From NCBI RefSeq assembly GCF_003334355.1, contig NZ_QOWP01000053.1: DNA of 12,534 bases, one strand, 5' to 3'. The notes beneath the pieces are model-generated. The model did no database searches. It had not been told where the DNA came from and saw only the letters and a list, made by a program, of their open reading frames with translations. A program made the translations under genes and the position numbers. The DNA comes from Escherichia coli. Its GTDB lineage: Bacteria > Pseudomonadota > Gammaproteobacteria > Enterobacterales > Enterobacteriaceae. Shown here piece by piece: positions 8,339 through 8,665 of this stretch (position 1 is the first letter of the stretch; each line of letters opens with the position of its first letter).

Positions 8339-8665
8339 TTAATGGCGGTGCCCATGACCCCGGCCTTTTCCGCGATGATCGTCACGATCGCGCCAGCCTT
8401 CACGATAGCCACGCTCATACGCTTTACGCTTATCCCAGCCACGGTGGTAGCCATTATCATGACGCCACCAACGGTTTTTGCGCCACTCATAATTGCGATG
8501 CCAGTAGTCACGGTCGCGCCAGTGACCACCGTCCCAGTAATTACCGTAATGATCGCGATCGCCAATTTGTAATTTGATTGATGGCAGTAGGGTGATTTCA
8601 CCTGCGTTTGCTGCAAGCGGGGTAAATGCCATCAGGGCGGCCGCCAGAAACAGTGACCTGAACAT
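8339..8665 (-). CDS. ypeC: Small secreted protein of unknown function (DUF2502-like), 108 aa, W/R/D/H/Y/G-rich
   Basis: N-terminal signal peptide ([21 protein letters not shown]). The mature part is strongly biased (WRDRD, GYHRGW, GYREGW repeats) and ends in [11 protein letters not shown] strong RBS (AAGGAGAATAACA) precedes the ATG. Confidence 0.85.

Follow-up and report, generated by a model that had tools for sequence, protein, structure and literature searches.

ypeC, on the minus strand at positions 8339-8665 of the 12,534-nt stretch of Escherichia coli DNA analyzed here (the window), encodes a small DUF2502 protein with a signal peptide, a single conserved aromatic-rich module and a low-complexity cationic tail, and published data show its induction by envelope and antibiotic stress. 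Taken jointly, the identity, export, architecture and stress regulation of YpeC described below are very probably correct, as is its description as a small Sec-exported, non-enzymatic periplasmic protein without a lipid anchor; a mechanism based on binding or buffering is a distinctly more tentative proposal. To the explanation as a whole, which combines the description and the mechanism, we give about even credence. The locus is an annotated gene of a known family with known regulation, and contains no new element.

Identity and genomic setting of ypeC

The gene is an ATG-to-TAA open reading frame of 108 codons before the stop, which is included in the coordinates. The initial annotation had named it ypeC and placed it convergently beside mntH, and both points are borne out. 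Its DNA is 100% identical to ypeC as annotated in RefSeq E. coli genomes, and the protein matches Pfam DUF2502 (PF10697) end to end (E 1e-23, 83.8 bits, residues 23-106 against positions 1-90 of the 90-position model). DUF2502 was the sole Pfam match at E <= 10, and searches of NCBIfam and PADLOC with YpeC gave no match. The RefSeq gene order is nupC, ypeD, mntH (+), ypeC (-), yfeO (-), glk (+), with mntH at 6960-8198 on the plus strand. A strong Shine-Dalgarno sequence, AAGGAG (8673-8678, minus strand), can be read 7 nt 5' of the ypeC ATG, and a purine-rich block at this place is kept in the upstream regions of ypeC orthologues.

Positions 8200-8800 are 100% identical to many RefSeq genomes. 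Every one of the 5,426 complete E. coli genomes searched has ypeC, and 5,392 of them cover at least 80% of a query spanning 8200-8800. The REP-containing part of this 601-nt query matches several places per E. coli genome (median 3) because of the REP-type palindromes in the gap between mntH and ypeC. This 140-nt gap between the two 3' ends holds two REP-type palindromic units (BIME; 8203-8330, no strand applicable) with inverted repeats I4 at 8227-8256 and I5 at 8283-8314, palindromes that we take to be REP from general knowledge of these elements in E. coli.

A hairpin, ACGGGG-CTTTACCT-CCCCGT followed by AATATT, lies at 8717-8736 between the yfeO stop and the ypeC start, within the presumed ypeC promoter region. 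The CTTTACC...CGTAATATTGCGTTAAC block around it is kept in Shimwellia. The hairpin may belong to the promoter or serve as a weak terminator of yfeO.

An Rfam scan of the window identified three tRNAs only, none near ypeC: two tRNA-Val(TAC) genes at the start of the window (2-199, minus strand) and a single tRNA-Ala(GGC) gene at 2899-2974 (+), all ordinary chromosomal tRNA genes. They flank a 471-codon open reading frame (458-1873), presumably gltX, and the tRNA-Ala gene adjoins one of 768 codons (3066-5372) that we take to be pdeA. The ER1709 genome has an IS421 pseudogene between pdeA and nupC; the window has no such open reading frame there.

Export, composition and predicted fold of YpeC

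Residues 1-21 (8603-8665, minus strand) have the hydropathy and n/h/c layout of a classical signal peptide, as the initial annotation had proposed. A basic n-region (MFR) is followed by a 14-residue hydrophobic core (mean Kyte-Doolittle hydropathy up to 2.6) and a c-region ending in AANA, with Pro at -6 and A-N-A at -3/-1, after which signal peptidase I is predicted to cleave. A21 is at least 90% conserved among 47 DUF2502 members, and the hydrophobic N-terminus is also kept family-wide. Cys is absent from YpeC, which leaves no lipobox, and the protein is therefore not expected to be a lipoprotein. From this layout, with its small residues at -3/-1, we infer that YpeC is exported through Sec, cleaved and released as a soluble periplasmic protein.

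The composition of the mature protein is as extreme as first described. Trp, Arg, Asp, His, Tyr and Gly account for 63 of its 87 residues (72%), where E. coli proteome frequencies would predict 24.7% (binomial P ~1e-20), with R at 18.4%, G at 14.9%, D at 11.5%, H at 10.3%, W at 9.2% and Y at 8.0%. Relative to the E. coli proteome, Trp is enriched 6x and His 4.6-fold; W, Y and H together make up 24 of the 87 residues (28%), and C, M, F and V do not occur. Mature YpeC (11.05 kDa) has a pI of 9.98, a GRAVY of -2.12 and a net charge of +7.6 at pH 7 and +14.4 at pH 5.5.

Structure prediction separated a folded part from a tail that is predicted to be disordered. An AlphaFold2 model built on 47 related sequences, with an overall pTM of only 0.42, places residues 31-70 with confidence (pLDDT 87-93) and predicts short strands, a helix at 52-58 and a hairpin at 59-68 within them, while pLDDT is below 50 for residues 73-78 and 85-108. 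On conservation and the AlphaFold2 model, residues 22-70 (8456-8602, minus strand) comprise a beta-like leader and a Trp/Arg/Asp-rich YWDG mini-domain of the form GDRDxxGxYWDGxxWRDxxYW..., and residues 71-108 (8342-8455, minus strand) a low-complexity Gly/Arg/His-rich cationic tail (pI 10.55, GRAVY -2.63, His 13%). An architecture of a signal peptide, one compact YWDG mini-domain (approximately residues 28-70) and a disordered cationic tail is thus well supported. Fold searches with the model found no structural relative outside DUF2502, and in a PDB sequence search the one match, to an antibody CDR (E 0.75), is attributable to chance.

Aliphatic residues are nearly absent from the mini-domain, and in their place the invariant Trp and Tyr, partnered by Arg and Asp, probably form its core. 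An aromatic core would explain much of the odd composition of residues 35-70, and the remaining bias would belong to the disordered tail.

The initial annotation had also seen internal repeats in these stretches. All of the motifs that it quoted are present (DRDHYGNYW at 36-44, WRDRDYW at 49-55, GYHRGWDKR at 72-80 and two further 10-residue motifs, one at 86-95 and one C-terminal), but their similarity is what the composition itself yields. The best 9-residue self-match in YpeC, HDNGYHRGW against YERGYREGW, scores 34; shuffles of the same residues score 30.9 +/- 4.2 and 25% of them reach 34. A hidden Markov model (HMM) of the YWDG module found no second copy in residues 58-108 (3.0 bits, equaled by 39 of 200 shuffles). 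With both the self-comparison and the module scan no better than shuffles, we rejected a repeat architecture for YpeC. The exception, a short HRGWDK-like unit, differs in number of copies from genus to genus (Kosakonia, Cronobacter, Franconibacter).

A conserved module with a variable tail defines the DUF2502 family

A word-indexed search yielded 278 YpeC homologues, all with DUF2502, and those with a named source are all from Enterobacteriaceae. When 1.84 billion cluster representatives were searched exhaustively with a profile, only 120 clusters came up at E <= 0.001, and the family is therefore small. Named DUF2502 members come from Klebsiella, Kluyvera, Pantoea and Rouxiella, and others from Yersinia, Serratia, Hafnia and Erwinia; the few beyond Enterobacterales are from Jeongeupia, Deefgea and a gammaproteobacterial metagenome-assembled genome (MAG). 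Nearly all of DUF2502 falls within Enterobacterales, and it is this order that possesses the Rcs phosphorelay.

Conservation is concentrated in the module. In a 47-sequence alignment G35, G41, Y43 and W44 are invariant and P28, D38, D45, G46, W49, R50 and W55 are at least 90% conserved, giving the pattern P-x-V-x-L-x-I-G-D-R-D-x-x-G-x-Y-W-D-G-x-x-W-R-D-x-x-W-W. YpeC has every one of these invariant and near-invariant residues. In addition to matching the full-length family model as given above, it carries the core motif P-x-[VI]-x-L-x-I-G-D-R-D-x-x-G-x-Y-W-D-G-x-x-W-R-D-x-x-[YW]-W after its signal peptide, with residues 35-57 scoring 35.4 bits against the module HMM. Of 116 family representatives, 23 (~20%) have the module twice in tandem, compared to the one in E. 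coli YpeC; the YWDG module therefore behaves as an autonomous unit.

The tail keeps its composition while its sequence is unconserved, with indels between genera. Across 56 DUF2502 tails, the content is 16.5% His (7.3x the proteome), 14.4% Gly, 13.5% Arg, 10.6% Pro and 9.1% Asp; 44 of the 56 have at least 10% His, and 43 are net positive and 12 net negative. These statistics cover 56 of 84 tails, the other 28 having been set aside as apparently frameshifted translations. Many DUF2502 database entries have I/T/M/A-rich C-termini (e.g. P0140, P0168, P0219), which look like frameshifted translations of the His/Arg/Asp-coding tail.

Several of the non-enterobacterial members P0156, P0180, P0181, P0189, P0201 and P0216 end in CPPGQ(A/G)KKGxC in place of the His-rich end; PPGxAKK-like motifs occur in RcnB-like periplasmic proteins. 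Two Pantoea members (P0275 from P. stewartii and A0A0B1RBG7 from P. rodasii) bear the database name 'Zinc ABC transporter substrate-binding protein', probably an annotation carried over by low-complexity His-rich similarity and no functional evidence.

E. coli itself has a DUF2502 paralogue, YaaX (b0005), which is ~50% identical to YpeC overall and near-identical across residues 23-66. The two share the signal peptide, an EITL(V/L)PS(I/V)KLQIGDRD leader, the YWDGGHWRD module and a His-rich tail. The YaaX tail, PPPPPRHHKKAPHDHHGGHGPGKHHR, is however unrelated in sequence to that of YpeC and lacks the GW(D/H)K and YERGYREGW segment, and yaaX lies in a different context (thrC-yaaX-yaaA).

ypeC is an envelope stress gene

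Published transcriptomics support the envelope-stress role that the initial annotation had offered as speculation. Inhibition of LolCDE raises ypeC 42-60-fold together with osmB, wca genes, bdm, spy and ypfG (PMC5105897), and ypeC is down 24-fold in an O157:H7 isolate with disrupted rcsB (PMC5343319). The paralogue yaaX is also reported to be Rcs-regulated, being listed in the RcsB regulon and induced by colicin M, and a Serratia DUF2502 gene has served as an Rcs reporter.

A second link is to the MarA/SoxS/Rob system. MarA ChIP-seq gave a strong peak (+++) at E. coli ypeC with the marbox gcattttttgctaaa, and the same paper cites ypeC among 25 E. coli SoxS ChIP-exo targets (PMC5684230). In Salmonella a SoxS ChIP peak at ypeC has the same marbox sequence (PMC10268841). 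In the window we found an exact match to this ChIP-reported sequence, GCATTTTTTGCTAAA, at 8770-8784 on the plus strand, 105-119 nt upstream of the ypeC ATG and overlapping the yfeO stop codon. The 15-mer is unique in the window (0.01 occurrences expected by chance) and is identical in Shimwellia, where ipdC replaces yfeO upstream. This site and the published binding place ypeC in the MarA/SoxS/Rob regulon. Binding by MarA or SoxS is reported for ypeC and not for yaaX in the literature on regulation that we consulted.

Upstream of ypeC (8640-8840) the best match to the RcsAB-box consensus TAAGAATATTCCTA reaches 9/14, a level also seen elsewhere in the window; sites for RcsB alone are too degenerate to score there. 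Rcs control of ypeC could be indirect, or act through an RcsB-only site. Neither a sigma-70 consensus promoter nor a terminator was detected for ypeC in a scan of 8150-8900, and no -10/-35 elements or transcription start could be placed with confidence. Transcription of ypeC from its own stress-responsive promoter, strongly Rcs-dependent and MarA/SoxS-bound, is well supported by the published data.

Proximity to mntH and a possible metal role

The initial annotation had drawn a conceivable metal role from the adjacency to the Mn/Fe transporter gene mntH, a line of argument that did not hold up. The two genes are convergent and therefore form separate transcripts. Our operator search recovered a Fur box (15/19 at 6892-6910) and a perfect MntR palindrome, AAACATAGCAAAGGCTATGTTT (6926-6947), both upstream of mntH, which served as positive controls. 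Upstream of ypeC the best matches were 12/19 for Fur, 11/18 specified positions for MntR and 14/23 for Zur, all at background level, and we found no operator there for the metal-responsive regulons shared with mntH (Fur, MntR) or for Zur. The 29-codon small open reading frame ypeD, annotated in RefSeq at ~6890-6979, overlaps the Fur box, the MntR palindrome and the mntH start codon.

Adjacency of mntH and ypeC is an old arrangement that Enterobacterales orthologues keep, always in convergent orientation, and that paralogues and distant members lack. Shimwellia, Mangrovibacter, Rouxiella and one metagenomic contig have an Nramp gene facing the ypeC orthologue convergently, and Pantoea has one gene between the two; the upstream neighbor of the orthologues varies. 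No Nramp gene adjoins yaaX or the DUF2502 genes of Jeongeupia, the gammaproteobacterial MAG, Rouxiella (P0271) and a metagenome, all of which have unrelated neighbors, and among the distant DUF2502 members examined for context no neighbor recurs. The order nupC-mntH-ypeC-(gpr-ipdC)-glk is a general syntenic block, and the placement of ypeC beside mntH is best read as inherited gene order with no functional coupling.

In the gammaproteobacterial MAG (L008, 834-4375) the DUF2502 gene follows three small same-strand open reading frames without a Pfam match. It adjoins an ECF sigma/anti-sigma pair and a BufA1/MbnB-type (bufferin-like RiPP) pair, a single case.

A metal role is conceivable only through the His-rich tail that is found family-wide. 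In its fullest form this alternative holds that YpeC is a periplasmic metal-binding protein, a metal buffer or metallochaperone functionally linked to the importer MntH, in which His and Asp of the tail, and perhaps of the domain, chelate Zn2+, Ni2+, Cu2+ or Mn2+. The tails do remain His-rich across the family without sequence conservation (16.5% His, at least 10% in 44 of 56), many contain (GH)n or HHHDHD runs, and some members end in the two-Cys CPPGQAKKGxC. With just 13% His, the tail of E. coli YpeC is a moderate case. The ZnuA His-rich loop, the ZinT N-terminus and ZraP are His-rich periplasmic metal-binding segments, and they share with YpeC the occurrence of low-complexity His/Asp/Gly stretches in an exported protein; homology between YpeC and these proteins is lacking, as is a metal-regulator site at ypeC. 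The convergent Nramp adjacency kept in orthologues of three Enterobacterales families and the one distant member beside a bufferin-type (BufA1/MbnB) cluster could likewise point to metals. Against this, Fur and MntR operators lie upstream of mntH only, with the ypeC upstream region at background for Fur, MntR and Zur; the REP elements between the convergent genes speak further against co-transcription; yaaX and the Jeongeupia, MAG, Rouxiella P0271 and metagenome members are not beside a metal transporter; the conserved gene order is that of a syntenic block; and the reported regulators of ypeC are Rcs and MarA/SoxS, with no metal sensors. We therefore regard a metal-binding protein linked to MntH as doubtful, although the best placed of the alternatives to the preferred reading.

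Proposed function of YpeC

In the preferred reading, YpeC is a non-enzymatic periplasmic protein whose synthesis would follow perturbation of the outer membrane or peptidoglycan and which would act stoichiometrically, by binding rather than by catalysis. The folded YWDG module would be the specific binding unit for an envelope ligand or partner, and the His/Arg/Asp/Gly tail a low-specificity binder of divalent cations, protons or anionic envelope polymers. Searches of Pfam, NCBIfam and PADLOC gave no enzyme-like feature and the PDB no relative, and none of the publications naming ypeC or DUF2502 in the library searched reports a function. Similar in regulation are OsmB, YmgD/YmgG, YcfJ, Bdm, Spy, Ivy and YpfG, small exported proteins that are strongly co-induced with ypeC by envelope damage. 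Most of this Rcs-induced set, like YpeC, are of unknown or non-enzymatic function. The likeness is regulatory only: we found no sequence or fold kinship between YpeC and OsmB, Spy, Ivy or their kind, and structures of Spy and Ivy exist, yet the PDB search with YpeC found no relative.

An extension of this reading that we put forward as speculative, and think improbable in its entirety, takes the YWDG module as an unrecognized, autonomously folding periplasmic binding fold with an aromatic core. Combined with a His-rich tail responsive to metal or pH, this fold could give a dedicated effector, induced through Rcs, with the task of sensing damage to the envelope or repairing it; attachment to a particular envelope glycan and buffering of cations in the periplasm are two examples of how it might work. 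YpeC and YaaX would then be a redundant pair. If true, such redundancy would explain a lack of single-mutant phenotypes.

ypeC is among the most strongly induced Rcs genes and a conserved MarA/SoxS target. Binding targets of YpeC and YaaX would fill a gap in how enterobacteria face outer-membrane, peptidoglycan and antibiotic stress, and the structure of the YWDG mini-domain, confidently predicted and without structural relatives, would be inexpensive to determine.

YpeC could instead be a hydrophilin-like or polyelectrolyte protectant of the envelope, coating or cross-linking LPS, peptidoglycan, osmoregulated glucans or colanic acid through Arg, Trp and Tyr and stabilizing the periplasm during osmotic or outer-membrane stress. 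Hydrophilins and LEA-like proteins are defined by Gly above 6% and a hydrophilicity index above 1; with 14.9% Gly and a GRAVY of -2.12 YpeC meets these numerical criteria, and it is stress-induced. Its pI of ~10, a net charge that doubles at pH 5.5 and its co-induction with osmB, colanic acid genes, spy, ivy and yjbJ in Rcs responses fit such a role, and carbohydrate-binding surfaces typically feature Trp, Tyr, Arg and Asp. Hydrophilins are however typically cytoplasmic and fully disordered, whereas YpeC appears from its signal peptide to be exported and has a conserved module that is predicted to fold, and it is this module rather than the disordered tail that is most conserved. The 12 of 56 tails that are net acidic argue against a simple polycation role as a general one. 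Nor is there similarity to a carbohydrate- or cell-wall-binding family: the G-x-YWDG-x-x-W pattern led us to consider aromatic cell-wall and carbohydrate-binding repeats such as Pfam CW_binding_1, and YpeC has no such Pfam match at E <= 10 (where DUF2502 is alone), no PDB sequence match and no fold match. We consider a protectant of this kind unlikely, a little more so than a metal-binding protein.

Far less probable is a sacrificial periplasmic scavenger in which Trp, Tyr and His absorb reactive oxygen or chlorine species. Binding of SoxS and MarA upstream of ypeC, the W, Y and H content (24 of 87 mature residues) and the position of the paralogue yaaX beside the peroxide-stress gene yaaA are compatible with this role. 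The Trp and Tyr residues, however, are invariant positions of a confidently predicted folded module, suggesting that they are structural, and the usual sacrificial residues, Met and Cys, are missing; the sole paper tying yaaX to peroxide concerns intergenic yaaX/yaaA mutations, which it ascribes to iron control.

That ypeC is no real gene, only a chance open reading frame in compositionally odd DNA where three other frames stay open for 83-119 codons, is refuted by the protein-type conservation pattern of its 278 homologues and has next to no probability given the strong Shine-Dalgarno sequence and signal peptide, a family-specific Pfam model, a confident predicted fold and the large regulated shifts in ypeC mRNA that have been published. 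The other frames over ypeC run at 8257-8616 (-), 8318-8572 (+) and 8326-8577 (+), and are probably a by-product of the restricted codon set of the gene.
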